Shown piece after piece: positions 9,760 through 52,493 of a stretch of 64,000 nt of DNA. The position numbers and the translations under genes were made by a program. Source of the stretch: an uncultured bacterium (GTDB lineage: Bacteria > Patescibacteriota > Microgenomatia > Levybacterales > UBA12049); assembly GCA_963826535.1 (NCBI GenBank), contig CAWGXL010000011.1:512809-576808 (forward strand), given 5' to 3'. The notes under the pieces were generated by a model, which saw only the letters and a program-made list of their open reading frames with translations, searched no databases and had not been told where the DNA came from. Each line of letters starts with the position of its first letter. Positions within the stretch are counted from its first letter, which is position 1.

Positions 9760-9780
9760 TTGTTTAATAGCTAATTTTTT

Positions 9781-9900
9781 ATGAATTGTCCGGGGTCGTG
9801 GGGCGTTGTCCGCCCCTGTCTCAGCCGATAAATCGGCTTCGCAGGCGGGCTCCTCCCTTCGGTCGTCCGCCCCCTACGCTAGCCACCCCTCTCAAGAGTA
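9781..9900. repeat. GC-rich MITE-like element (family shared with 17085-17140, 19621-19830, 24784-24900) inserted between atpD and atpC
   Basis: GC-rich island in an AT-rich genome. Shares CCGGGGTC...CCCCTGTCTC...GCAGGCGGGCTCCTCCCTTCGGTCGTCCGCCCC...CCACCCCT with other loci. Internal hairpin AGCCGAT-AA-ATCGGCT. Confidence 0.6.
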
Positions 9901-9942
9901 GATTTTATTGTTTTTATGAATACTTTAACGAAAGGGAATATT

Positions 9943-10189: not shown

Positions 10190-10262
10190 TAAAAGTTCAA
10201 AATTAAAAGTTATATATAATAAAAGACAAACTTTGAACTTTGTTCTTTAAACTTTTAACTTA
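10190..10262. terminator. bidirectional hairpin terminator between convergent atpC and giant gene
   Basis: Inverted repeat TTAAGTTAAAAGTT...AACTTTTAACTTAA flanked by T/A runs, built from AAAGTTC-type heptamers. Confidence 0.5.
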
Positions 10263-13200
10263 ATTTATAATCCACCAGTTAATCTTTATATCTTTGTTGA
10301 TTGTATAGGGAATTGCAATAGTAAATGATTCACCGGTTTGGCGGGCTATATATGGGCTGAGTCCTTGGGTGTCTGATGCTGCTGAGAGATAGACTAGAGA
10401 TTCAGTCTTGACATACGGACTGATAATTGTTCTTTCAGTTTCATATGCCGTTATAATAGCAGTTCCGGCTGAAGATGAGGCTATGGTTTGAACAAGGGAA
10501 GTGTCAGCTTGCGCGCCTCGGATGATGTTGAATCCATTTGCGGCGACGCGCGCGAAAATTCCTGAGCCGGAGGCAATAATATCACCTACCTGATTAACAG
10601 CAAGAATTCCACTACCTGAAGAGTTTTGAATTATTAATTTTGACTGCTGATTGTTCGATTGTTCCATTGTTCCATTGTTAAGCTCCAGGATTAGGTCTTG
10701 ATTTGGGATGGGCGCGATTAGTGAGGCTGTCAGTTTGCCTTTGACAGCAACATCTTTGGCAAAGGTTGCGTTGCCGCTAACTTTAAGATTTCCGTTGGTG
10801 TCAATGGCTACTAAGTTTCCCATAATCGAAAGATTGCCTTGACGAAGTGGTTGTAGTTCTAAGTCACTGCCTAATGTGTTTATAGTGTTATTTGCTAAAA
10901 TCAAGTTTCCGCCTACATTGAGATTTCCGGCTATGGCAACATCCGAGAGAGTTGAAGGACCCAGCACCATCATTCCTTTGGAAAATTGGGCACGGTCTGA
11001 TTTTAAGGATGGTGTATAAGCCAGTTGTCCTGATAGGGAAGAAAGATTGGCGTAATCATTTGTTAATTGTTGATTGTTGTTTATGAGCTGCAATAATTCT
11101 AAATTATCCGGTTGAGCCGGGGGAGTCACATTCTCAATGATTGGTAATCCCGATATAATCGGGACTGGTTGGTGGTTGGTGATTGATGTATTTTGTAATG
11201 CGGACGTAGTCGCGGTTGGGCTGTTGAAATTTGCAGGAGAAGAGGCTATTAGTGAGGCTGGGTATAAGCCTGCACCTTGCTCCGCAGAGTTTGATGCATT
11301 CTCCGAAGCAGAACCTGAGGCATTAAAGATATTAGTGACATTGGTTATGTAAGCAGCTGAAAGGCTTGCAGATACATTATTATCAGAGGCAAGTTGACCT
11401 GAAGTACTTGCAACAGGGTTAGGGGTTAGGGGTAGGGGTGTTGGAGAGGCTGAGGTTGAGGCTAGAGGACTTAGAAGCTTGTTAGCTTTCAGCTCCTGGC
11501 TATCAGCTATCAGATTTAACTTTATACTTAATAATTCTTCTTTGATAAATTGATCTATCGATTCCTGGATAATTGCAGCTATGTATTCTTGAAGAGTTTG
11601 GCCACCTATTGTGATATTATCTGAAGTTACCTGCAATGAATCCGTCGCTGTTTTTTCGGCCTGTATAAATCCTACTTGAATATTAGTAATAATATTTTTT
11701 GTTAAAGCTTGAATAAGGCTGGAACTAGTACCTAAATTATCTTCAAGATTATACTTTTCAGTATAACCTGTAGAAGTAGAAGGGTCAAAAAATGATAGGT
11801 TAATAAAGACTATAATTTTGCCTGTTTGGTTTGGATAGGGATTTGTATAACTTTCCAAAGCTTTTCCTATAACTGTGCCTGACTTACTGGCTTTCATAGC
11901 TACACCAGGCAGAGAGGAGCTGGTTAAAAAGTCACCTGGTTGTATTATCCCATTTTCCGAGGATACTTTAACCGGTACTCTTCCAGAAAGCGCAATTGGA
12001 ATGATATATGGATGAGCACTATCTGTCAATGCATCAGAATTTAACGTTATACCAGGACGGGTTGAAACAATACCAATGGTCTGGGATTGATAAGCTTTCA
12101 CAGTTTTAATAACTGAAGGGTTATTATTATTTTCTTCAGGCATGACAACATCTCCCGGTTCCAGAGAATCAGCTGATACATAGTTTTCCGCTACATCAGC
12201 ATTTTGTACTATTGTGTTGGCTGCATAGATTGTGCCAGATGTGTTCCCTGCGCATGGTCCTGTAGTATTTTTTACACAAAGAGACCCGGCGATTTTTAGA
12301 GTATTTTCAGGTTTATTATCGGCAATTCCTATATTCCCGTTTTGAGCTATGGTAAAACTGGGGGATCCTGATGAAGATGAGGTGAAGATATCACCAGTAG
12401 TGTTTCTTTGCCAGAAACCGCTTACGGTCGCGGTTGGGCTGGTATATATATTGTCAATATAGCCGTTATTCCAGTGTTTTGTGGCAGATCCTAGATCGTA
12501 AGTGCCAGAAGTAAAAGGGATTAAATTCGAGGCTACATTGCCTGAGATAATTAGGGAGCGATCTGCGCTTATTGTTATGCCTCCGTTTGCAATAAGCGTG
12601 TTATTTATTTTGGTCGCTCCTGAGGGCCCACCTATAGAAATAGAACTCGCAGAACCAGCGATATTTAGATTGATAGTATTAGTGTTAAGTAGATCAAAGG
12701 AGGTATTTGCCGATGTTAAGTTGTTACCATTGATGACCAGATTCCCGGCAAATATGCCTGTACCATTGTTTTCGAGGGTAAACTTAGCAGTCCCACTTGC
12801 CGAAGCGCTAATTATGGGACCTGTAGAGTTTTGATTGATAGTGAATGCTGATTGGCCACTTGAGGTGGCTAGAACTGCAAATAAATCGTCAATTTCAACT
12901 GCACCTTGGGCTGAAGTTATATTATTATTGTTTGTTGTATTTTGTAATGGTTTTTGTAGATCAATTACTCCAATTCCGTTCGGAGAGATTTCAATATTGC
13001 CATCCGATCCTGCTGTTGAATTTAAAACAAGAGTTTTGCCGGAAATGGTAAATTTACCTCCGCTCGCCTGAAAGATTGGATTAGCTTTTCCACCTATAGT
13101 AAGATTTCCAGCAGAGTCCAATGCAAGTACAACATTATTTGTTCCAGCACCATTTTTAGTTATAGGTATTAATCCCTGTAGTTTTTCTGAATTATTTGAT

Positions 13201-14717
13201 AAAGATAATGTGGCTAGTTGTTGCCTTGGTTCCAGTTCATTGTCTGTACCAACTGTCATACCAAGATATAGGTTGGGGTTTTCTGAAAAAATAGAAGATA
13301 GCAGTTGATTGTTTCTGCCTATAATTGCGGAAAATTTACCTTCTTGATTTGGTCTGATATCTTGCACTTCCTGCCATAGTAATGCAGAACCTGAGGCAGA
13401 TTGGTTATTATATAGAGCGAATCTCAGCGGAGTGACTGAGGTTATTGGATTATTCTTTTCGTCTGATATTATTCCCTGAAATCTGATAGTTTTTGGAGGA
13501 GGTATAGAAGCACTTGCAAATACAGGTTTTTGTTTACTTAAATCCGGGTAAAACGAACCATATAAAGCAGACCCAAAAAGGGTTGTAAAAATGATAAGAA
13601 TACCTACATGCAAGTAAGTTGTTATAGGATATGAATGATATATTTTGTACCATTTTGGTCTTGTATGTTTAAGGTGATGAAATATTTTTTTATGTTTTGG
13701 CAATCCATTTATGGATATGCTTAAGGGGGCGTATGTTGATTTTGGAATATTTTGAATATCATGTTTTTTGATATTTTTTGATATATTAAATATAGATAAA
13801 AGGGGAATAGTTTTTTTATTTTCATCAATTCCTGCGTGAATGTCTACCTGAAATGGCTTAAAAACGTTTCCTCCACTTAATAACCAGATAAAATGTTCAG
13901 CTTTAGATATTAGTTTTGTAATAGGCAAGGTGAGGAGAAAGTCTAATATTGTTAAATATCCTAGAGATTTTTCTATATTTTCATTTTCGTTTATTTTTTG
14001 GATATTTTGGCCTTGTATTTCTTTGAAAATACTTAGATTAGTTTTTATTTTATGTCTTGTAGTTTTTTCTGTTTGAAGATTTGGTATTTGGCTTATTTTG
14101 ACTGTTTTTTTTCCTAGCCATGAAAGGTATTTGCGTATGGAGGATAATTTACGGTTTATTGAAGTAGGAGATAAGTGGACTACTAATAACAGCCTGTTTT
14201 TATATTCATTGATGACGAATTGATCTATGTTGTTTATTATTTCTGTGTTCTGGCTAGCAATAGGCTTAGATGGTGTAACTTTTTCGAACCAAGAAAGAAA
14301 TTGTTTTATATCCATAAGGTAGTTTTTCGTAGTTAACTTTGACAGATTATCACTTAATAGATATAGCCTGAATTCGTTAAGCATAAGCCGGTCAATTGGG
14401 AGTTCTTTAGTGTCAATTTCCTGGTCGAATGGGTTGTTAATTATTACTTTATTAAATTTTAAGAAATAGAAGAAGCTTCTAAGTGAAGATAAATAGCGTT
14501 CAATTGAGCTTGTGGATGCCTTATCTTTCAGCAAAGACATTTTATAAAGTTTAATTGTCTCAATGCTTATCTTTTTTGGAATGAAGGCGGAATTAGAGTA
14601 TTCTTCGCTCCATCTTATAAATCTTCTGGCGTCAGAGATATAATTTTTAACTGTAAATTTTGACGGTTTATTTTTTTTGGATAGTAAATGTATTTTGAAT
14701 TGTTCTAAAATATTCAT
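10260..14717 (-). CDS. giant membrane/surface protein (1485 aa): two tandem phage-integrase-N-terminal SAM-like (core-binding-like) domains, TM segment, large Thr/Ser/Asn/Gly-rich extracellular repeat region
   Basis: N-terminal ~200 aa contain two repeats resembling the tyrosine-recombinase core-binding domain (KNYISDARRFIRW...IERYLSSLRSFFYFL; TKNYLMDIKQFLSWF...INRKLSSIRKYLSWL). Hydrophobic helix at about aa 360-385 (YPITTYLHVGILIIFTTLFGSALYG). No C-terminal catalytic integrase domain. Plus-strand ORFs inside are antisense artefacts. Confidence 0.75.
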   Translation of the reverse strand: MNILEQFKIHLLSKKNKPSKFTVKNYISDARRFIRWSEEYSNSAFIPKKISIETIKLYKMSLLKDKASTSSIERYLSSLRSFFYFLKFNKVIINNPFDQEIDTKELPIDRLMLNEFRLYLLSDNLSKLTTKNYLMDIKQFLSWFEKVTPSKPIASQNTEIINNIDQFVINEYKNRLLLVVHLSPTSINRKLSSIRKYLSWLGKKTVKISQIPNLQTEKTTRHKIKTNLSIFKEIQGQNIQKINENENIEKSLGYLTILDFLLTLPITKLISKAEHFIWLLSGGNVFKPFQVDIHAGIDENKKTIPLLSIFNISKNIKKHDIQNIPKSTYAPLSISINGLPKHKKIFHHLKHTRPKWYKIYHSYPITTYLHVGILIIFTTLFGSALYGSFYPDLSKQKPVFASASIPPPKTIRFQGIISDEKNNPITSVTPLRFALYNNQSASGSALLWQEVQDIRPNQEGKFSAIIGRNNQLLSSIFSENPNLYLGMTVGTDNELEPRQQLATLSLSNNSEKLQGLIPITKNGAGTNNVVLALDSAGNLTIGGKANPIFQASGGKFTISGKTLVLNSTAGSDGNIEISPNGIGVIDLQKPLQNTTNNNNITSAQGAVEIDDLFAVLATSSGQSAFTINQNSTGPIISASASGTAKFTLENNGTGIFAGNLVINGNNLTSANTSFDLLNTNTINLNIAGSASSISIGGPSGATKINNTLIANGGITISADRSLIISGNVASNLIPFTSGTYDLGSATKHWNNGYIDNIYTSPTATVSGFWQRNTTGDIFTSSSSGSPSFTIAQNGNIGIADNKPENTLKIAGSLCVKNTTGPCAGNTSGTIYAANTIVQNADVAENYVSADSLEPGDVVMPEENNNNPSVIKTVKAYQSQTIGIVSTRPGITLNSDALTDSAHPYIIPIALSGRVPVKVSSENGIIQPGDFLTSSSLPGVAMKASKSGTVIGKALESYTNPYPNQTGKIIVFINLSFFDPSTSTGYTEKYNLEDNLGTSSSLIQALTKNIITNIQVGFIQAEKTATDSLQVTSDNITIGGQTLQEYIAAIIQESIDQFIKEELLSIKLNLIADSQELKANKLLSPLASTSASPTPLPLTPNPVASTSGQLASDNNVSASLSAAYITNVTNIFNASGSASENASNSAEQGAGLYPASLIASSPANFNSPTATTSALQNTSITNHQPVPIISGLPIIENVTPPAQPDNLELLQLINNNQQLTNDYANLSSLSGQLAYTPSLKSDRAQFSKGMMVLGPSTLSDVAIAGNLNVGGNLILANNTINTLGSDLELQPLRQGNLSIMGNLVAIDTNGNLKVSGNATFAKDVAVKGKLTASLIAPIPNQDLILELNNGTMEQSNNQQSKLIIQNSSGSGILAVNQVGDIIASGSGIFARVAANGFNIIRGAQADTSLVQTIASSSAGTAIITAYETERTIISPYVKTESLVYLSAASDTQGLSPYIARQTGESFTIAIPYTINKDIKINWWIIN

Positions 14718-16230
14718 AGGCGTATCCTATATATTAGCCTTGAAATTATACAGATTATACCGTGAACTTTATACCTAATAATAGCTTATAACCTTTAGAG
14801 AAGAGTTGTCAATAGGCATAAATGATATATATTTATATATTTATATATATTATTATATATAGAAAATAAGACGAACTATTAGCAAATGCTTTGTGAAAAG
14901 TTTTTTTTAACCGTGAAAATCATTAATTTAGCCTGGTAGTACTAAATATGGGTATGGATAGGGATCTAAAGTGGAGTTAACATGGCTAGTTTTGTAAATA
15001 TACATAAATTAAAAAGTAATTTTTACTTATTTATATTCTTAAATCTTAAATTTGCTTGTCTTAACAGTCTAAATTTATTAATATTGAAAAGTATATTAGT
15101 TATTAACATTTATACGGATGATAAAGTAGGGCAAAAATTTAATCAGGTAAAGTAAATGTCTATTTCAACCCGTTTTAGATCTATTTTTATAACTTTAATA
15201 TTATATAATATGGGCTTATTTTTAATTAGTTTAACTCTATGTTTTTAGATCTTATAGTAATAGTCAACTTTTGAGTATTAATTTCTTATATACTGTCCTT
15301 AACTCTAATTTACTATTTATCAGTAGCTATTGTTGAGTGCTAGGTTATTAATATTATTATTTGGACTATATTGTTAACTAATTATGCTAATTTCGTTTGT
15401 CAGTTTATAAGCATATCTCTAATAGGGCTATTCTTTTATAGAGGTATAGAATAGCTCTTAAAATTTTATCTGGAGGGTTATTAGTTTTACTTATTTAAAT
15501 ACATTTAATATTATAAGTTTTTAGTTCGTATTTATTTTTTAAGTATAATTATTGGTAATTTCAACTCAATTATTGGGTCGTATAATGAGTTTGCCGGGGT
15601 CTTTTAATATATTATATTGTTTTTTTAGAGTTCAATTAGCTTTCAGCTAATTAAAAGTCTATCTATTTCTTAATTAAGTCAATTTTTGCTTACTAATATT
15701 GGTATTTATGTTAATAGTATCAATTACCTATATATATTTAGGTAATTAAATTTATCTTATAATTTTGCTTTATATCATTTTTTCATCAATTTAACTCATC
15801 TTAAGTAGCAGCTTTTCTTCTAGCCAGGGCCTCTGAAAGGCCATATAGGACTTTAATTCTCTTAAATAGGGGCATTGTGTACTGGAAATCTATTATCTAT
15901 TCCCTTATTATATTTTCTTTTTTACATATATTAAATCAATTCTAGGTAAACTAAACTATCCCTTATCATCAGGCTATTTTTAAGTCTTGTAGTTTTCATT
16001 TTAATCTTATAATAGTACTTCTATTTTTGTTTATAATAGTTATAATATTTGGCTTTTTTATGCCTATTTTAATATTATAGGTTAAATGGTATATATATTT
16101 ATGCTTTAAGATATTATTTACCTGTGAATTACCTTTTAGATATGGTTAGTCGCAATGAAAAGTATTAACCTACTTTATTCTAATTGCAGAGCTGTTCACA
16201 TTATTGTTAACATATTATTAGGATGAAAAT
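14718..16230. other. 1.5 kb extremely AT-rich ORF-free region
   Basis: No ORF >60 aa on either strand. Poly-TA tracts (14820-14870). Lies next to transposase remnants. Confidence 0.5.
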
Positions 16231-16232
16231 GA

Positions 16233-17040
16233 CGAAATCTGCCCTTCGTCTGTCAAGTGGGGATAAGATTATTATAATTAAGAAAGTATTAGGAGGTAAA
16301 TCTATATCCTCGTCCTGTAGAAATGCAGGAATTTCACGAACGATATTCTATAAGTGGTTAAAGCAATAGTCTAGAGGCACTCCTAATAGTATTATTAAGG
16401 ATCTTTCAGCAAGAAATCCAAAAGGAAATCAAAACTGGAGGAAAATCGAAAGCAAACTATCACGCAGGATAGTAAAATTAGCATTAAGTCATCCTGATTA
16501 TAGTATAAGAACTATTGCTACAAGTTCAGAATTAAGTATTGGTTTTGTGTGGGAATTACTTAATAATAAATCACTTGCAACTAAATCTGATAGAAATAAA
16601 AGCCTTGATGTTTATGGGAAAATATATATAGGCCGATTATAGGTAGCGATAAGGAATTGATGATTAGGAGGTTTGAAAATGGTGATTCAATTAATACAAT
16701 TTGTAGGGATTTTCGAATATCCAGAACTATATTTTATAATTGGTTAAAAAAGTATAAAAAATCTAATAGTAATATTGAAGTTTTAAAGAACAGGAGGCCA
16801 AGTGGCAATGAACATTGGAGGTTTATATCAGGTTTAAATGAAATAGTAGCAGATTTTATAACAATTCATCCGGAATGTTCATTAAATCAAATACATTAAC
16901 TAATTCTTGAGAAGAAAGGAGTTAATGTCAGTAGATCCGGTTTATAATATATTTTAAAACGTTTGGACCATAATACTGCTGATAAAAGGCTTAAATATGC
17001 AGCTGCTCACAAGCTTGTAAGCAGACAATTGTACTCAGTG
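16233..17040 (+). pseudogene. two tandem degraded copies of the N-terminal HTH region of an IS630/Tc1-like transposase (no DDE domain)
   Basis: Copy 1: MTKSALRLSSGDKIIIIKKVLGGKSISSSCRNAGISRTIFYKWLKQ* then RNPKGNQNWRKI...HPDYSIRTIA in another frame. Copy 2 (16657..16899): ...ICRDFRISRTIFYNWLKKYK...RRPSGNEHW..., then LILEKKGVNVSRSGLYNILKRL after a stop. Frames are broken by stops. Confidence 0.5.
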
Positions 17041-17084
17041 CCAGACTTAGAATTGCCTCGAATTCCAAGGTATTCGTTCCTTTC

Positions 17085-17140
17085 TTCCCCCCACCCCTGT
17101 CAAGCAGGCGTGCTCCTTGGTCCGCCTCCCCATATAATAA
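17085..17140. repeat. degenerate copy of GC-rich MITE-like element
   Basis: CCCCACCCCTGTCAAGCAGGCGTGCTCCTTGGTCCGCCTCCCC parallels the 9781 and 19621 elements. Confidence 0.4.
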
Positions 17141-19587: not shown

Positions 19588-19620
19588 AAGAGGCGTATGT
19601 ATTATTATATAGTCTTATTT

Positions 19621-19830
19621 TTGAAATCTCAAATTTATATGGCCGGGGTCCTTTCTCCCTCCCACCCCTGTCTCGCTTCGCTCGCAGGCGGGCTCCTTCC
19701 TTCGGTCGTCCGCCCCCAGTCTCCCACAAGTGGACTATCTTCTTAGAAGGGTCGCCACGTCCTCCTTCTCCGCCAGCTGGCGGATCGCTGCGGGCGCTCG
19801 ATGGGTTCCCCAACGCCCGCCACCCCTGAC
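19621..19830. repeat. composite GC-rich element upstream of leuS (MITE-like module + CCCACAAG-GGAC hairpin module + CTGCGGGCGCTCGATGGG module)
   Basis: Shares long blocks with 9781-9900 and 24784-24900. Internal variant of the TCCCCACAAGGGGACTACCTTCTTCGAAGGGTCG element at 19722-19765. Confidence 0.55.
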
Positions 19831-19936
19831 GCCTTTTTTTAAGAGTAATATTATACCTAACTTGTTTAAGAAGTGTAAATGTAACGGATTTACAACGGGC
19901 TTTTTTCTTTTTAAGCTGTATGCTATACTGCTGAAG

Positions 19937-22691
19937 ATGAGGAAAAATGAGGCTAAATTCAGTGAAAAAAGTTTGGAGAAATATGACCCCTCAAGCATTG
20001 AACCGTATTGGCAGGCTAAGTGGGAGAGCGCTGGAGCTTATCAGACTGACCTTGAGAGTGCTAAAAACCCTTTTTATAACTTGATGATGTTTCCGTATCC
20101 GTCGGCTGAAGGCTTGCACATGGGCAGCGTGTTTACTTTCAGTGGTGTGGATATATATGGAAGGTTTAAGAGGATGCAGGGATATGATGTGTTTGAACCA
20201 ATTGGGCTGGATGGGTTTGGGATTCACTCGGAGAACCATGCGATTAAAACCGGAATGCATCCTATAGAACATGCTAAGAGAACTGAGGAGAATTTTTACA
20301 GGCAGCTTAGATTGATTGGGAATGGGTTTGATTGGAAGCATAAAGTTGAGACTTATGATCCTCATTATTATAAGTGGACGCAGTGGTTATTTGTTGAACT
20401 TTTTAAAGCTGGATTGTCCTATAGAAAAAAGTCTCCGGTTAATTTTTGTCCTTCATGTAAGACGGTATTGGCTGATGAACAGGTTATTGACGGAAAATGT
20501 GAAAGGTGCGGATCAATTGTTGAGAAAAGAGAGCTTGAGCAGTGGTTTTTTAGAATTACTAAATATGCAGAGAGGCTGCTTAATAATATTGTTAAATTGA
20601 ATTGGACTGAGAAGGTGAAGATCGCACAGAAGAATTGGATAGGAAGATCTGAAGGCGTTCGGATTAAGTTTGCTCTAAAAGTTTCCGGTCAAAAAGACGG
20701 GAAGCATTTTGTTGATGTTTTCACCACACGTCCCGATACGCTTTTTGGGGCAACGTTTCTTGTTATTTCTCCTGAGCTGGCAAAGTCCTGGTTGTCTGTT
20801 GGCTGGAAAGCTCGATCTGAATTAGTTGATTATATAGAGACGGCAATGGGATCTGACCCACGATTAAGAGAAGCAGCCGATCGGGAAAAAACCGGTGTTT
20901 CTACAGGTGTTATAGCAGTTAATCCAGTTACTAATGAGGAAATTCCGGTATGGGTGGCGGATTATGTGCTTGGTGGGTATGGAACAGGGGCGATTATGGC
21001 AGTACCGGCACATGATCAGCGGGATTTTGAATTTGCTCAGAAGTATAAATTAAAGATTAGTACTGTCATCCTGAACAAAAGTGAAGGATCTAAAGATTCT
21101 TCGGCTTTGCCTCAGAATGACAAAAAAGTAGCGTACACGGGCTCTGGGGTTTTGGTAAATTCAGGGGAGTGGGATGGGTTAGAAGTGCCGAAAGATATAA
21201 AAAAAGTTTTAGATTGGTTGGAAAATAAAGGGTTTGGGGAGAGAGAGGTGAATTACCATTTGCGGGATTGGCTGATTTCTCGCCAACGTTACTGGGGGCC
21301 GCCGATTCCGATGATTTATTGTGAGGCTTGTGCGAAGAAGGGGAAGAGTTGGTTTAGTCTGAAACCGAAGACCTCACCCCAACCCTCTTCTAAAAGGGGA
21401 GGGAGAAATGTGAGTGAAAATAATGATTGGGAAAGTGCGGGGTGGTATCCGGTTGAGGAAATGGAATTGCCGGTGAAATTGCCGTATATTGAGGATTTTA
21501 AGCCTATGGGTACGGGAAAATCGCCACTTGCCAATTACCCGAAGTTTTATGAGACGGTGTGTCCGGGGTGCGGGGGCAAGGCTAGGAGAGAGACAGATGT
21601 ATCCGATACTTTTTTGGATAGTGCTTGGTACTTTTTCCGTTACACGTCGACCGAGTTTGATGACCGTGCTTTCGATAAGCAGAGAGCAAAAAAATGGCTG
21701 CCTGTGAATATGTATATTGGCGGAGCAGAGCATTCGGTATTGCATTTGTTGTACGCACGCTTCATATGGAAAGTTCTTCTTGATCTTGGACATATTGGGT
21801 TTTCCGCCCAAGGCGGACCAGCCTCTGGGCTGGGAGGAACCGTTCGCTAGGTTTTATGCGCATGGGCTTTTGATCAAAGATGGTGCAAAGATGAGCAAAA
21901 GCCGGGGAAATGTGATAAATCCTGATGATTATATCCGAAAATTCGGCGCGGATGCGCTTCGTGCGTATTTGCATTTTTTGGGACCTTTTAATGAGGATGG
22001 AGATTTCAGGGATACCGGTATTGAGGGAATGCATAGGTTTTTGAAAAGGGTCTGGACTCTTTTCAAAAAAGTTCAAAGTTCAAAGTTCCCCACAAGGGGA
22101 CTACCTTCTTCGAAGGGTCGCAAAGTTCAAAGTTCAGAAGAAAATCTGAGGATGATGCATAGGACGATTGCGGGGGTGACTGAGGAACTTAAGAATTTGC
22201 GATATAATACGGCAATTGCGAAGCTTATGAGTTGGTATAACTTTTTGGCCAAGCAGGAATCTGTGAGTAGAGAAGAGATGGAAATATATTTGAAGCTTTT
22301 GGCACCGTTCGCGCCACACATAACTGAGGAATTGTGGCAGGCACTAAACTACCCAGAACGAGGCGCAGAACTACGCGGAAAAGATTGGTCAATTCATGCA
22401 AGTAAATGGCCGAAATTTGATCCTAAGTATATTAAAGACGTTGTTGTGAAGATTCCGGTACAGGTGAATGGGAAGTTGCGGGAGACAATAGAAGTTCAAA
22501 GTTCCCTCCTCGGTGGGCAGGCAAAGTTAAAAGTTCCCCACAAGGGGACTACCTTCTTCGAAGGGTCGCAAAGTGAAATAGAAAGGATGGCGAAAGAATG
22601 TGATAACGTCAGAAAATATCTTGAGGGGAAAAAGATTTTGAGAGTGATATATGTGCCTGGGAAGGTGATTAACTTTGTGGTAGGAAGTTAG
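19937..22691 (+). CDS. leuS: leucyl-tRNA synthetase, apparent +1 frameshift near 21795-21825 and two in-frame mini-element insertions
   Basis: N-terminus ...IEPYWQAKWE...NLMMFPYPSAEGLHMGS; KMSKS motif (GAKMSKSRGNV) in the second frame. Frame A ends at 21850 (...KVLLDLGHIGFS...). Frame B (21717..22691) continues ...EEPFARFYAHGLLIKDG. Confidence 0.8.
22068..22136. repeat. mini-element (CAAAGTT)n-TCCCCACAAGGGGACTACCTTCTTCGAAGGGTCG-(CAAAGTT)n inserted in-frame in leuS
   Basis: Two hairpins (CCCC-ACAA-GGGG; CCTTC-TTC-GAAGG). Translated as SSKFPTRGLPSSKGRKVQSSE. Nearly identical copy at 52122-52190. Confidence 0.7.
22491..22575. repeat. second copy of the same mini-element in leuS, inserted in a different reading phase
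   Basis: ...CAAAGTTAAAAGTTCCCCACAAGGGGACTACCTTCTTCGAAGGGTCGCAAAGTG translated as KLKVPHKGTTFFEGSQSE. Confidence 0.7.
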
Positions 22692-23486: not shown

Positions 23487-24782
23487 ATGTTAAGTTTTAG
23501 GATTTTATTGATTATTGTTTTTCTTCTTATTTTTCTAGGTTTAAGATTTTGGAACTTTTATAAAGACTTACCGGAATATTATCATGGGCAGAAGATTTCT
23601 TTGATCGCTGAGATCGCAGACGAGCCGGAAATCGTTTTTGGGAGACAGAATTTTAATATAAGAGATGGATATGGGACCCGTATCAGAGTTGTCAGCGCTT
23701 CTTCGCCGCTTTTAAGTTACGGTGATAGAGTTTCTATTGATGGGTTTTTCACGAAGAAACTTTATAAAGGTAAAAATTATCTAGTCTTATATTTCCCAAA
23801 GATCCAAACTCTAGGATTAGATGATAATATTTTAACTAAATGGGCTATTTGGACTCGTAATAAAGCGCAAAATGACTATGAAAGGCATCTTCCGCCTGTG
23901 TCCTCCAGCTTGCTTTTAGGTATACTTTTCGGAGGGAAACATGGAATGCCGGATGTGTTTTCGGAACATCTGCGAGTTGCGGGAGTAATGCATGTAATTG
24001 CAGCGTCGGGGATGAATGTAACTTTTGTTGCTGGAGCTTTAATAGGTGTGTTGGGTTCAATATTCAACAGACAGTTTGCTATAGTTATAGCTGGGTTTGG
24101 TATTGTTTTTTATATGTTTTTAGCAGGATTTGAAGCATCGATTGTGCGTGCCGGGATCATGGCTCTTCTGGCTTTTGGGGCGAGTCTTTTGGGAAAGCAG
24201 TATTTGGGAATGTATTCACTGTTAGTTGCTTTTTATTTGATGTTAATTTACAGTCCTGGTTTGTTGTTTGATGTTGGTTTTCAGTTGTCTTTTTTGTCAA
24301 CGCTTGGGATAGTGATTTTCAGACCCCACTTCGTCCCGCTGAGCGGGACTTCGCGGGGCAGGCCCCACGCCACTGAAAATGCAAAGGGGAGTTCGCTTAG
24401 TAATATCCCCGGTATGACAATTTTGTCTGAGGATATTGGTACGACTATAGCAGCTCAGATTGCTGCGTTGCCGGTTTTGATGTCTGTTTTTGGGTCGGTT
24501 GGGATTTTGTCTATATTGGTAAATGCCCTGGTGCTTTGGACAATTCCAATTCTTATGGCTTTCGGGGCTTTGTCTTTGGTTTTAGGTTTAGTTGTTGAAC
24601 CTATTGGACTGGTGTTTTTGTATTTGTGCCTGCCTTTCCTTTTATTTTTTGAGCAGGTTGTTTCATTTTTTGGGGGTTTCGGCTGGGTTTGGAAAGTGGA
24701 GGAGTTTCCTTGGCAGTTGAGTATTGGGTATTATTTAGTGCTTTTGGCGATAGTATTGTATTTACGAAAAAAGAGGCTATGA
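23487..24782 (+). CDS. comEC: ComEC/Rec2 membrane channel, N-terminal and competence domains only
   Basis: Polytopic membrane protein with VAGVMHVIAASGMNVTFVAG (ComEC competence-domain motif). Carries an in-frame GC-rich mini-element at 24322-24395. Confidence 0.7.
   Translation: MLSFRILLIIVFLLIFLGLRFWNFYKDLPEYYHGQKISLIAEIADEPEIVFGRQNFNIRDGYGTRIRVVSASSPLLSYGDRVSIDGFFTKKLYKGKNYLVLYFPKIQTLGLDDNILTKWAIWTRNKAQNDYERHLPPVSSSLLLGILFGGKHGMPDVFSEHLRVAGVMHVIAASGMNVTFVAGALIGVLGSIFNRQFAIVIAGFGIVFYMFLAGFEASIVRAGIMALLAFGASLLGKQYLGMYSLLVAFYLMLIYSPGLLFDVGFQLSFLSTLGIVIFRPHFVPLSGTSRGRPHATENAKGSSLSNIPGMTILSEDIGTTIAAQIAALPVLMSVFGSVGILSILVNALVLWTIPILMAFGALSLVLGLVVEPIGLVFLYLCLPFLLFFEQVVSFFGGFGWVWKVEEFPWQLSIGYYLVLLAIVLYLRKKRL
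24322..24395. repeat. GC-rich two-hairpin mini-element (GTCCCGC-TGA-GCGGGAC; GGGGC-AG-GCCCC) inserted in-frame in comEC
   Basis: Perfect 7-bp stem. Translated as RPHFVPLSGTSRGRPHATENAKG. Related copies at 32226-32265 (minus orientation) and 44068-44090. Confidence 0.65.
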
Positions 24783-24783
24783 G

Positions 24784-24900
24784 GTAGTGTTTTTGTCCCA
24801 ATGGGGTCCTGTCTCGCCTTTTCCCAGTCCGACGTCCTCGCTCACTACGTTCACTGCGGGCGCTCGACTGGGAGCCCTAGGCTCGCCACCCCTAACTAAT
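24784..24900. repeat. GC-rich MITE-like element between the comEC membrane part and the MBL-domain gene
   Basis: Shares GGGGTCCTGTCTCGCC and CTGCGGGCGCTCGACTGGG...CGCCACCCCTAAC blocks with 19621-19830. Confidence 0.55.
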
Positions 24901-24912
24901 TCTATATAAATA

Positions 24913-25776
24913 ATGAAAAAATATATATTGTTAAGTTTTTTGGCTTTTATTTTGTTGTTGGGTATTGGAGTATATCAATATTTTCTATTTCATGATGGCC
25001 GTTTACATGTAGTTTTTTGTGATGTCGGGCAAGGAGATGCAATATTTATAAGAGCGCCAAATAACAAATATATTTTGGTTGATGGAGGGCCGGATAAAAA
25101 AGTGCTGGATTGTTTAGCAAAGCATATGGGTTTTTGGGAACGGACTATTGATTTGGTAGTGCTAACGCATCCGCACCAAGACCATTTTTTTGGACTGAAT
25201 TATGTATTAGATCGATATATTACTTTATCTTTTGCAACAGAAAGATTGAATAATAATACCGGGAGTTATCGGGATCTTAATCGAAAAATTGGAGAGAAGA
25301 AGATAGCTCAGAGGACAGTTTTTGCGGGGGATAGATATAGGATCGGAGAAGATTTATTTATAGCTATTGAATCACCTTCGCATCAACTGTTGCAGCGTTC
25401 AAGTCCTAATGGAGTGATCGGCGAGAGTCGCGAATTTGCTTCAATTATTTTGAAATTAACTTATGGAAACTTTGATGTGATTTTTACCGGTGACGCACAA
25501 GCTGAAGCTTTGGGTGAAGTTGCATCAGAAAACCAAAACAAAATCGAAGTGCTTCAGGTTCCTCATCATGGGTCGAAGACCGGGTTGAATAGGGGCATTA
25601 TTGAACAACTTGCTCCAGAGCTAGCAGTTATTTCTGTCGGAGCAAAGAATCGTTATGGGCATCCAAGTAAAGCAGCATTGAGTTTGTTCGATGAAAAGAG
25701 GATAAAGATTTTGCGGACTGATAGGGATGGGGATGTAGAGATCTTGAGTGATGGAATGAGTTTTTGGATTAAGTAA
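24913..25776 (+). CDS. metallo-beta-lactamase-fold protein, ComEC C-terminal domain encoded as a separate gene
   Basis: N-terminal TM helix. HxHxDH motif (VLTHPHQDHFFGL), later GD and HHGS motifs. Confidence 0.7.
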   Translation: MKKYILLSFLAFILLLGIGVYQYFLFHDGRLHVVFCDVGQGDAIFIRAPNNKYILVDGGPDKKVLDCLAKHMGFWERTIDLVVLTHPHQDHFFGLNYVLDRYITLSFATERLNNNTGSYRDLNRKIGEKKIAQRTVFAGDRYRIGEDLFIAIESPSHQLLQRSSPNGVIGESREFASIILKLTYGNFDVIFTGDAQAEALGEVASENQNKIEVLQVPHHGSKTGLNRGIIEQLAPELAVISVGAKNRYGHPSKAALSLFDEKRIKILRTDRDGDVEILSDGMSFWIK

Positions 25777-31378: not shown

Positions 31379-32722
31379 TTAGTTGGCTAGATGGTTGATG
31401 GGTTTTTCGCTTGGTCCCGATTTAACCCCGATTATATCGGGGGGACTCGGAGTTGGGTTTGGTGTAGATGCGAGATTTTTTGTCGTGGAATTGATTGGGA
31501 TGGTGAAGGTGATTGTGGTTCCTTTGTCGGGGTCGGAAACGAGGGCGATGGTACCGCCGTGGGCTTCAACTATTCCTTTGGAGATATATAATCCAAGTCC
31601 GGTTCCTACAGTTGCATTTGGGCTACGGATTTGTGTGAATTTTGAAAAGAGTAGATGTTGTTTTTCTTTGGGAATTCCGATTCCCGTATCGCTTACACTA
31701 ATAGAAATTTTTTCATTGTCAATCCAAGCTCGTATGGTAATAGTACCTCCGCTTGAAGTGAATTTAAGACTGTTAGTGAGTAGATTGTTTATTACCTTGC
31801 GTATCTGATAGCTTTCGAAGCTGGCTTCGGGCACAAGCGGGTCAATTTGGCATACTAAATGGATAGATTTATTTTCAGCAAGATGTTTGTATGCTTCTAC
31901 AGCTTCTGCAATGACTTTTTTAACATCTCCGTTTGTTTTCTGTATTGTAAAAAGTCCGTTGTCTAGCTTAGCAGCATCTAGAATTGTAGATACTTCATCG
32001 AGCATTTTGCCTGTTTGAACGCTGATGATCCCTATCAGGCGCTTTTTTTCATCATCTGTAAGATTTGTTCCTCCTGTTAACATTTCGGAACTGGCTTTGA
32101 TGGAGGTGAGGGGACTGCGCAATTCGTGGACGATGATGCTAGTGAAATCTTCTTTCATTTTTGATAGTGATTTTTCCAAAGTAACATCATGGATTAAAAA
32201 TGAGGCTCCAGTAACTTTGACTTCCTGTTCGTTCCGCTCAGCGGGACTTCGCGGGGCGAGTCCCAAGACACTGGAAACATCGTTGGGAGCCAGGATGGGA
32301 TTTATTGTTACATTAAAGGATTTGTTATCATGGAGTATATTTTTTTCTTCAATTTTTTGGTTTAATTTTATGGCTTTTTCAATTCTTTCACCGAAATTAT
32401 AGGTATTGGGTAGGCTACTTAATACATCTATTATTGACGGGTTGTCTTTTTGCAGTCCCAGGAAATCTTTGGCGGTTTTGTTTATCAAAGTTAGACGGCT
32501 GTTAACATCTACCAAAAAGAGACCGTCATCAAGGTTCCCAACTAATGATGTCAAATCGTGTTTTTCTCTAACCAGTGCTTCCTGCAACTTTTTTTCATTT
32601 TCGTTGAGTGCCTTTTTAAGTTTTTCTTCTTTAATAGAGTAAAAAATGGCAAGTATGCCAAAAAATAATGTTGCAGAAATAGCAATGATTATGGGCAGGT
32701 CCATGATAAGTTCAAAGTTCAA
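31379..32722 (-). CDS. sensor histidine kinase (TM, PAS-like, HisKA, HATPase_c)
   Basis: H-box IIVHELRSPLTSI. ATP-lid GTGLGLYISKGIVEAHGG. Contains an in-frame GC-rich mini-element at 32226-32265. Confidence 0.8.
   Translation of the reverse strand: MNFELIMDLPIIIAISATLFFGILAIFYSIKEEKLKKALNENEKKLQEALVREKHDLTSLVGNLDDGLFLVDVNSRLTLINKTAKDFLGLQKDNPSIIDVLSSLPNTYNFGERIEKAIKLNQKIEEKNILHDNKSFNVTINPILAPNDVSSVLGLAPRSPAERNEQEVKVTGASFLIHDVTLEKSLSKMKEDFTSIIVHELRSPLTSIKASSEMLTGGTNLTDDEKKRLIGIISVQTGKMLDEVSTILDAAKLDNGLFTIQKTNGDVKKVIAEAVEAYKHLAENKSIHLVCQIDPLVPEASFESYQIRKVINNLLTNSLKFTSSGGTITIRAWIDNEKISISVSDTGIGIPKEKQHLLFSKFTQIRSPNATVGTGLGLYISKGIVEAHGGTIALVSDPDKGTTITFTIPINSTTKNLASTPNPTPSPPDIIGVKSGPSEKPINHLAN
32226..32265. 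repeat. GC-rich hairpin mini-element (CCGCTCAGCGGGACTTCGCGGGGC family) in-frame in the histidine kinase gene
   Basis: Reverse orientation of the comEC copy. Translated as LGLAPRSPAERN. Confidence 0.6.
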
Positions 32723-51354: not shown

Positions 51355-51388
51355 ATTTAGAATTTACAATTTATAATTTAGAATCAAT

Positions 51389-51440
51389 TTTCCCCACAAG
51401 GGGACTAGGTTTTTCCCCACAAGGGGACTGGCGCAAACCG
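51389..51440 (+). terminator. tandem TTCCCCACAAGGGGAC hairpins with T-run, probable mreB terminator derived from the mini-element family
   Basis: TCCCC-ACAA-GGGGA stem-loop followed by CTAGGTTTTT; second copy immediately after. Confidence 0.5.
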
Positions 51441-51701: not shown

Positions 51702-52493
51702 ATGTTGAGGAAAAGTTACATCCTTGGTGTTGGTATAACTAACGAAATCGAAGATAAAATCTTGGAGTATTTGTTATTGGGCCTAAAAAGTGCAAGGGAA
51801 AAGTATTATATTGTTACTCCTAATCCAGAGATACTGGTTCATTCATTTGGCAATCCGCATTATAAAAAGATTCTAAATGAGGCTAAAATAGCATTACCTG
51901 ATGGAATTGGGGTGTTTTTGGCAAGCGCATTGATGGGGAACATTATGAGAGAGAGGATTGCCGGGGTAGATTTCATGGACGAGATCTGTAAAAGATCAGT
52001 AAAAAGGCCCATAACAGTGGGCTTTTTGGGGGGTAGAGATGGGGTAGCAGAGAGAACAGCCGAGTGCTTAAAGGCGAAATATCCTTGGATAGAAGTGGGG
52101 TTTGTGGGAGAGGAATGGGCAAAAAGTTCAAAGTTCCCCACAAGGGGACTACCTTCTTCGAAGGGTCGCAAAGTTAAAAGTTCAAAGTTAGAGCTTGATA
52201 TTCTCTTTGTGGCGTTTGGGCATCCTAAGCAGGAGGAGTGGATTTATAAAAATCTTGAACGCCTGCCGGTGAGGGTGGCTATGGGAGTGGGAGGGGCATT
52301 TGATTACATTAGCAGCAAAGTAGTCCGGGCACCTTTTATGGTTCGCGCGATGGGGTTTGAGTGGTTGTTTCGGTTGATTGTGGAGCCGTGGCGCTGGCGG
52401 AGACAGTTGGTGTTACCAAAATTTGTGTGGCTGGTTTTGAAAGAAAGATTTGGAAAAAATATAGAACAACGCAAAATTTCATCCCGCCTCTAG
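51702..52493 (+). CDS. WecB/TagA/CpsF-family (GT26) glycosyltransferase with in-frame mini-element insertion
   Basis: YIVTPNPEILV...ALPDGIGVFLASALMG. Insertion at 52122-52190 encodes SSKFPTRGLPSSKGRKVKSSK. Confidence 0.7.
   Translation: MLRKSYILGVGITNEIEDKILEYLLLGLKSAREKYYIVTPNPEILVHSFGNPHYKKILNEAKIALPDGIGVFLASALMGNIMRERIAGVDFMDEICKRSVKRPITVGFLGGRDGVAERTAECLKAKYPWIEVGFVGEEWAKSSKFPTRGLPSSKGRKVKSSKLELDILFVAFGHPKQEEWIYKNLERLPVRVAMGVGGAFDYISSKVVRAPFMVRAMGFEWLFRLIVEPWRWRRQLVLPKFVWLVLKERFGKNIEQRKISSRL
52122..52190. repeat. copy of the (CAAAGTT)n-CCCCACAAGGGG-CCTTCTTCGAAGG mini-element inside the tagA-like gene
   Basis: Nucleotide sequence nearly identical to 22068-22136. Confidence 0.7.

Follow-up and report, generated by a model that had tools for sequence, protein, structure and literature searches.

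The ERIC (IRU) sequences are 127-bp imperfect palindromes of the Enterobacteriaceae and Vibrio. Such elements are ~100 nt long and non-coding, form one long imperfect hairpin in transcribed operon spacers, occur as size variants made by internal insertions or deletions, and are unusually conserved between genera. To our knowledge, no transposase is known for them. Repeats of the ERIC/IRU type have been reviewed (PMC3184786, PMC2229807), and REP or REPIN sequences have been described as palindromes of 20-40 bp that bear a GTAG or CGTC head, frequently lie as inverted doublets and share their genome with a RAYT gene (PMC3733652). For the candidate phyla radiation (CPR), Patescibacteria or Microgenomates, we found no description of interspersed repeats (MITE, REP or palindromic) in the literature. 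Bacteria of the candidate phyla have genomes of <1 Mb that are usually described as streamlined.

Here we analysed a 64-kb stretch of DNA with 40% GC (the window, i.e. the whole stretch at its full length). A first-pass annotation had proposed that short, GC-rich, MITE-like elements located at gene boundaries form one family, with four copies, called A to D below; our own count of three to four copies applies to these 64 kb. The proposal held, and further copies were found in related genomes at non-orthologous sites. We demonstrate a multi-copy element at non-orthologous positions, with a covarying hairpin, a modular nested architecture and, at one copy, an 11-bp duplication. A to D are probably lineage-specific small non-coding hairpin repeats of Microgenomates, members of the candidate phyla radiation, and resemble MITE, ERIC, BOX and REP elements in kind. 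The family is previously undescribed, and its conservation is unusually strong.

Copies in the window

The four copies were present at or near the coordinates first reported, all on the + strand, and each formed a sharp C-rich island of 62-75% GC, compared with 40% GC for the window. Their limits required correction, e.g. the start first assigned to B (19621) had taken in ~22 nt of AT-rich flank. The gene context of A, B and C was derived from Pfam domain matches in the window.

Copy A (full insert 9787-9910, GC core 9792-9889) lies in the atpD/atpC spacer and is a long form that lacks the central hairpin. It consists of GGGGTC...CCCCTGTCTC, the hairpin AGCCGATAAATCGGCT, a 33-nt block and CCCTACGCTAGCCACCCC, followed by a 21-nt AT-rich 3' tail, and its predicted fold reaches -48 kcal/mol (z=-2.3). 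Copy B (19643-19831, core 19645-19830) is a long mosaic in the spacer between leuS (start 19937) and a divergent 233-aa gene (start 19587, minus strand). Nested within it are the 33-nt block (19682-19717), a variant of a module termed H1 (19718-19760) and the apical hairpin CCGCCAGCTGGCGG. Copy C (extra spacer 24783-24912, core 24803-24892) is the basic ~91-nt hairpin with an AT-rich lead and tail, and separates the gene for the comEC membrane domain from that for the MBL domain. Copy D (~17077-17133) is truncated and degenerate; it corresponds to the left part of B, to which it is identical at 22 of 24 nt, and comprises TCCTTTCTTCCCCCCACCCCTGTC followed by the CCTGTCAAGCAGGCG hairpin.

The long shared blocks claimed for these copies proved to be beyond chance. 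When each copy was compared with the window by blastn (word size 7), A and B shared 36 nt with 97% identity (E=2e-9), B and C 46 nt with 78% identity (E=1e-5), and B and D 24 nt with 92% identity (E=1e-3). An internal piece of B matched the H1 module over 43 nt (84% identity, E=7e-7), and three identical 43-nt copies of H1 were located inside genes. The sequence CCTGTCTC occurred four times in the window, compared with 1.1 occurrences expected, and three of the four fell within A, B and C. The proposed mosaic structure was equally borne out: B is a C-type backbone with nested inserts, and one insert, which sits precisely at the junction of CCCAGTC and CCACGTCCTC, is a variant form of the two-hairpin module CCCACAAGGGG.

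Some neighbours of the copies deserve mention. D adjoins the broken end of what had been taken for an IS remnant; it is in fact a pseudogene of an HTH+LysM protein (16223-17007) with internal stops and a frameshift. The gene is intact in the related loci L002 and L003, and homology ends ~60 nt before D. Next to atpC, a 1485-aa protein is encoded on the minus strand (10260-14717), whose Pfam matches include two phage-integrase SAM-like N-terminal domains but none of the integrase catalytic-domain families. The protein gene adjoins atpC in all syntenic relatives and is followed by ~1.2-2 kb of gene-poor, very AT-rich DNA. Another GC-rich hairpin module, TTCGTCCCGCTGAGCGGGACTTCGCGGGGC, recurs in more than one genome and is located in coding sequence (24330-24359 inside comEC, 32234-32257, and L002 1474-1503).

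Family members in related genomes

We compared the window with related loci. Three of these, L002 (GCA_041643235.1), L003 (GCA_041643395.1) and L004 (GCA_964516195.1), were fully collinear with it over the genes between and including atpD and the MBL gene. L003 and L011 come from one assembly, L002 and L013 from another. The next relatives of the window's LeuS (residues 1-637) were 62-67% identical, and the named ones were Candidatus Levybacteria.

A covariance model (R1), an approach that the first-pass annotation had suggested, was built from five copies. It retrieved 9-10 full-length copies with E<=1e-9 at six distinct sites in five genomes or strains. Copy C scored 109 bits (E=4e-24), and the matches in relatives had E values from 1e-24 to 6e-10. 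They were located at L006 7211-7307 and 13148-13244, L008 2835-2931 and 9385-9481, L011 9882-9978 and 10892-10984, L003 13475-13553 and, on the minus strand, L007 1844-1933. The sites occupied in relatives were the comEA/comEC, trpB/trpA and aroB/aroA junctions, an aminotransferase/PEP-carboxylase spacer and the spacer after trpA. The metagenome scan used only the pattern GGGGTCCTGTCTC...TGCGGGCGCTCGA and matched three JGI contigs; TrpA homologues placed these in Microgenomates, with named matches in Daviesbacteria and Roizmanbacteria.

The model returned no full hits for A and B, whose membership was assigned by block homology and by comparison with L011b, a long form at L011 10820-11045. A was 79% identical to L011b over 86-93 nt (E=5e-14), and the right half of B was 76% identical to L008 2865-2928 over 70 nt (E=4e-7 to 9e-7). 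C was 80% identical to L003 13465-13544 over 81 nt; the comEA/comEC spacer that this copy occupies measures 200 nt in L003, compared with 67-68 nt in the window and L002. The hairpin module of D was also found at L006 4272-4294 and within L011 10967-10989.

Neither the covariance model nor blast detected family members in L002, L004, L005, L009, L010, L012 and L013. Other GC-rich hairpin elements occupied similar junctions in L002 (447-618) and L013 (9880-9990) where this family was absent; the one in L013 is an unrelated element at trpB/trpA of GCA_041643235.1, and the ends of one such other element, GTCATTTCGA...TCGAAATGAC, are inverted. It therefore seems that hairpin elements in general land at operon junctions.

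A 25-mer of the A/B block was searched against 185,579 species genomes and had one match, in a Gaiellales MAG of high GC content (L001, DASUHT010000100.1), where two unrelated palindromes of REP type flank it. This match to the A/B block is exact over 29 nt (GGCGGGCTCCTTCCTTCGGTCGTCCGCCC, window 19687-19715, L001 3147-3175). We treated it as unexplained and not as a family member; coincidence and a cross-phylum module are both possible. The A/B block was absent from the JGI metagenomes and viral contigs searched, and since the C-type and H1 patterns were likewise missing from the viral contigs searched, a phage origin is unsupported.

Anatomy and covariation of the hairpin

The basic (C-type) unit is an imperfect hairpin of ~91 nt with 31 pairs. 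Its frame reads (TTGYYC)GGGGT-CCTGTCTC-GCNT...ANGC-TCGCC-ACCCC(TYGCA) and encloses a core hairpin, CCCAGTCCGACGTCCTC-(variable apical hairpin)-TGCGGGCGCTCGACTGGG, of which the apical 15 nt are swappable among copies (TCCGCCYGAGGCGGA, GCTCGCTTTGCTCTC or GCTCACTACGTTCAC). The GGGGT...ACCCC ends named in the first-pass annotation were found in all of A, B and C, and the consensus structure pairs one end with the other. As terminal inverted repeats they are short: beyond these 5 bp, TTGCTC... and ...TYGCAG match at ~3 of 6 positions, and TTGC/GCA is a partial extension of the inverted ends.

In seven aligned copies, 97% of the alignment cells were compatible with pairing, compared with 39-48% when the partners were slid. 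Compensatory changes occurred in 6 of the 31 pairs (one position is G:C, C:G or U:A depending on the copy), and none of 500 shuffles reached the covariation score. The stems thus covary while the loop sequences CCTGTCTC and TCGCC are invariant. Sense and antisense strands fold about equally well, and the minimum free energies therefore do not distinguish RNA from DNA structure. No ORF was conserved in any frame across the elements.

Element size ranges from 91 to 210 nt. In the long forms (A, B and L011b; ~125-210 nt), extra hairpin modules are nested within the frame. L011b and A have CCCCTGTCTCAGCCRATAAATYGGYTTCGCAGGCGGGCTC in common, with one compensatory change from G:C to A:U, and L011b contains the CGCCTGTCAAGCAGGCG hairpin found in D. 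By sequence, A is the long form minus the central core. Its inner hairpin (CCGCC-CCTGTCTC-AGCCG...CGGCT-TCGC-AGGCGG) is a miniature of its outer frame (GGGGT-CCTGTCTC-GCGT...ACGC-TCGCC-ACCCC), with other stems and the same loop sequences.

Strongly folding GC-rich islands in an AT-rich genome, with a structure that covaries, could also be small-RNA genes in their own right, or what is left of ribozymes or introns. However, Rfam at gathering threshold yielded only two tRNAs in the window, and in a permissive search of A, B and C the best match had E=0.47, nothing at E<=10 rising beyond noise. The elements also lack a promoter or terminator of their own, sit in tight operon spacers, and vary among relatives in presence and in module content. 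We regard this explanation as very unlikely.

The leuS region and modules within genes

B had been described as a leuS leader with a possible role of such elements as promoters or terminators. The Pfam matches confirmed the gene context given for the copies, except that B occupies a divergent intergenic region. An extended -10 box (TGnTATACT), followed by 7 nt and the leuS ATG, is present in the window, L002, L003 and L005, i.e. also in relatives without B; in the window, this promoter region spans 19913-19936. Because the conserved box is only 7 nt from the ATG, the leuS mRNA is, as judged from sequence, probably leaderless. B ends ~90 nt upstream of the box, which speaks against a leuS leader.

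Two sigma-70-like promoters on the minus strand (19604-19632 and 19850-19879; 11/12 consensus positions) flank B, and a run of seven T residues follows it. These features would fit promoters, intrinsic terminators or a structured regulatory leader. Both of these strong promoter-like sites, however, point to the 233-aa gene and lie within the AT-rich flanks, outside the GC core. An intrinsic terminator (a GC-rich hairpin with a direct T-run) was sought and not found at A, B or C. Moreover, A and C are internal to operons, and transcription has to pass through them to reach the genes downstream. The first-pass annotation had named a match to a known riboswitch or leader family as grounds against the proposed family; no riboswitch, T-box or other Rfam match was obtained. 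A promoter, terminator or leader function of the elements is therefore very unlikely.

Smaller modules were found within leuS itself. A 31-nt double hairpin (TCCGCCCAAGGCGGACC AGCCTCTGGGCTGG; 21803-21833, + strand), the first hairpin of which equals the apical loop of C-type copies, shifts the reading frame ~20 residues before KMSKS. ORF1 (19937-21850) encodes a 637-aa part, and the frame of ORF2, which extends to 22691, a ~290-aa part. Deletion of the 31 nt restores ...GHIGF|EEPFARFYAHGL, as in LeuS homologues. The gene could be a true split LeuRS, a pseudogene or the product of a 1-nt assembly error. A natural split at a nearby position, within the leucine-specific domain, is present in the LeuRS of Aquifex aeolicus (PMC3643597).

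The two-hairpin module H1 (CCCCACAAGGGGACTACCTTCTTCGAAGGGTCGC; 22515-22575, + strand) is inserted in frame in leuS and adds 17 aa that are missing in four homologues. The module recurs at 22068-22136 and 52123-52184, and half-copies of it are found at 51388-51429. H1 is flanked by AAAGTTC heptamers and was also found inside a WecG/TagA-type glycosyltransferase gene; its in-gene insertion is reminiscent of Rickettsia palindromic elements. In relatives, H1 is present at L006 5893-5927 and L003 1624-1655, and intergenic versions carry compensatory changes in the second hairpin. Tandem (AAAGTTC)n arrays and variants thereof occur at nine places of the window (8349, 22068, 22122, 22523, 32714, 34672, 36040, 52123 and 52170), at gene ends and within genes, all on the + strand. 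Relatives contain heptamer arrays as well (L002 156-180, L006 5870-5960), also of other heptamers (GGTGATA, AATTTTC), and in-frame arrays in their LeuS encode KVQSSKF-like stretches.

Insertion and target-site duplication

A synteny comparison had been recommended by the first-pass annotation, and it identified relatives without inserts at the sites of A and C. The atpD-atpC spacer is 156 nt long in the window, compared with lengths of 25, 20 and 38 nt among the three relatives L002, L003 and L004. A is flanked by an 11-bp direct repeat, TTTTTATGAAT, which we interpret as a target-site duplication. The upstream copy lies at 9776-9786 (+) and the downstream copy, which holds the atpC start codon (ATG 9916-9918), at 9911-9921 (+). 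The 11 nt are the longest match between the flanks, a length reached in none of 2000 shuffles (p<0.0005). The empty site of L003 (...ttgttaTATGAATgatac...) has a single repeat copy with one TATGAAT, and subtraction of insert A and one repeat from the window spacer leaves 48 nt, approximately the length in L002.

Between the comEC and MBL genes, the window has a gap of 130 nt where the genes of L002 and L003 overlap by the 4 nt ATGA. C is bounded by ATGA on either side (24779-24782 and 24913-24916), which is the ancestral overlapping stop/start. These comparisons show at the sequence level that A and C are inserted DNA. The spacer upstream of leuS varies widely among relatives (79-373 nt), and the insertion of B was therefore argued from composition and homology. 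We rejected the idea that the promoter region had undergone a long duplication at B, as the flanks of B have only a 7-mer in common (p=0.33).

In all, five orthologous junctions were empty in relatives. The trpB/trpA and aroB/aroA junctions are occupied in L006 and L008 (trpB/trpA also in L011) and empty in L012, where the spacers measure 12 and 8 nt; TrpA of L012 is 81% identical to that of L006. An origin as integron attC sites was considered and rejected: the 3' ends vary (CCCCTAAC, CCCCTGAC, CCCCTCTC, CCCCTTGC), and the flanks are core operon genes in conserved order.

At the nine other copies, the shuffle test found no significant flank repeats. A duplication at one of ~10 copies counts against a MITE and would suit REP/REPIN-type or IS200/IS605-derived palindromes, which an HUH tyrosine transposase (RAYT/TnpA) mobilises in the form of single-stranded hairpins. 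The elements are hairpin-based, a CGTC motif precedes the apical hairpin, and small GC-rich hairpin modules are also found within genes, as is the case for REPs (PMC3733652). Against this reading, the unit has 91 nt and not 20-40 nt, the copies are single without inverted doublets, and the GTAG head is absent. HUH transposition does not make an 11-bp duplication like that at A, and neither a RAYT nor a Y1 transposase was encoded in the sequences examined (window and related loci). We thus consider an HUH-type origin unlikely.

Conservation between distant genomes

The copies are much more conserved than the genes around them. Excluding the apical 15 nt, C of the window was 97.4% identical both to the copy L008a and to the copy L011a, and L008a and L011a were identical to each other at all 76 non-apical positions. 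At the four-fold degenerate sites of the adjacent trpA, these genomes were only 52-54% identical. Synonymous sites are saturated between genomes in which the 76 stem positions stay 97-100% identical. The trpB/trpA flanks of L006, L008 and L011 have in common ACATAT, which follows the stop codon, and ATAAATT, which precedes the ATG. Because these flanks are homologous and have diverged, the simplest reading of the sequences is that the trpB/trpA copies go back to a single old insertion with a conserved core.

Neutral decay is excluded for the element sequence, which leaves selection or continual overwriting from conserved active copies. The conservation of the stem points to a constraint at the sequence level, and possibly to a function. 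A sequence that is nearly constant across genomes argues for recognition by some protein, be it a mobilising enzyme or a host factor, and against free decay. Near-perfect conservation of copies that look orthologous is unexpected for a purely selfish, decaying MITE and counts against our main reading.

The elements may instead be mainly a cis-acting RNA signal between cistrons that is selected by the host, with mobility only as the mode of arrival; this is compatible with a mobile origin. Candidate functions would be an RNase III/E processing site, a barrier to 3'-exonucleases, a 5' stabiliser, or the uncoupling or tuning of translation of the next cistron. The identity of L008a and L011a next to four-fold sites with 52% identity fits such a signal, as do the single old insertion at trpB/trpA suggested by the flanks and the invariance of the unpaired loops beside covarying stems. 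Further, at A, C, trpA and aroA a distance of 20-26 nt separates the end of the core from the start codon that follows, and the sense orientation was found at six of seven co-directional sites, a preference that is not statistically significant. However, relatives lack the element at the same junctions, where it is therefore dispensable, the copy in L007 is antisense, and the core hairpin has been lost in the mosaic or truncated copies A and D. The conservation could also stem from gene conversion and transfer from active copies. On balance, we consider a host-selected signal possible but doubtful.

In its most specific form, the hairpin stem-CCUGUCUC-stem-loop-UCGCC-stem would be a protein-recognised intercistronic signal, kept by a clade of Microgenomates under strong purifying selection, which serves to process operon mRNAs, to stabilise them or to uncouple their translation and is still spreading as a mobile element. 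We put this forward tentatively. If true, the hairpin would have retained 97-100% identity over the time in which synonymous sites became saturated. Smaller modules would also remodel essential genes, e.g. by splitting leuS.

Proposed mechanism of spread

For the preferred reading, a family of mobile hairpin repeats, we propose the following scheme. Element DNA would insert into short AT-rich spacers between operon genes, transposed by a putative enzyme that recognises the frame. At A, the 11-bp target including the atpC start codon would have been duplicated in this step, leaving both neighbouring genes intact. A copy would survive only if its insertion spares the stop and start codons as well as the ~20 nt of AT-rich DNA that precede the start. 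Transcripts of the operon would then include the element, mostly with its C-rich strand as the sense strand, and in the mRNA it is predicted to form a stem-loop of -37 to -70 kcal/mol, with 20-26 nt between its end and the following start codon. The mild sense preference may be due to GGAGG-like motifs, which an antisense copy would expose.

As in MITEs, the elements are small, lack coding capacity, are present in several copies and show insertion polymorphism. The cognate transposase was missing from the sequence examined: no transposase, RAYT or IS with matching ends was found in the 64-kb window or in ~220 kb of related loci. The gene of a parent mobilising enzyme, if present, would be expected to be flanked by TTGYYCGGGGTCCTGTCTC...GCCACCCCTYGCA.

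The family means that modular GC-rich hairpins proliferate within the core operons atp, comE, trp and aro, and modules akin to them also occupy essential genes. It accounts for odd GC islands and for extra 'split gene' spacers that confuse annotation, and it could serve as a marker for strain typing and insertion polymorphism. Its extreme conservation makes it a concrete candidate for a nucleic-acid-protein interaction in unculturable organisms.

Comparison with known systems

The likenesses given here concern architecture and genomic setting, and the systems were compared by description. With the ERIC/IRU sequences, the window elements share size, the single hairpin, the position in operon spacers, variants by internal indels, conservation and the lack of a known transposase. 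They differ in that no sequence similarity is apparent, the host belongs to another phylum (candidate phyla radiation), the elements are GC-rich in an AT-rich genome, the duplication at one copy has 11 bp and is not TA, and modules also invade coding regions.

Like the BOX elements of Streptococcus pneumoniae and the BIMEs of E. coli, the window elements combine few recurring modules in variable arrangements and numbers, with stable folds at gene boundaries. Unlike in BOX elements and BIMEs, the modules are nested in a conserved outer hairpin frame and not set in a row, and no relationship of sequence is apparent. MIRUs of mycobacteria similarly occupy intercistronic operon spacers where the stop and start codons of the neighbours overlap or abut. 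MIRUs, however, carry small ORFs that restore translational coupling, and a MIRU-type coupling ORF was sought in the window elements and not found.

The likeness to the Rickettsia palindromic elements (RPEs) and intragenic REPs (PMC3733652) lies in the reduced genome and in the in-frame palindromic modules in essential genes (H1 in leuS and the WecG-type gene). It covers the small modules (H1 and the 31-nt hairpin) and not the 91-210-nt intergenic elements, and one of the insertions breaks the frame. Finally, classical MITEs such as Correia/NEMIS, RUP and Nezha are likewise small, non-autonomous, multi-copy elements with insertion polymorphism, complementary ends, target duplication (here at copy A) and co-transcription with their neighbours (here predicted). 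The window elements differ from them in having very short terminal inverted repeats and no parent IS or transposase in the sequence examined, and in that the whole element is a hairpin instead of two terminal inverted repeats around a spacer.
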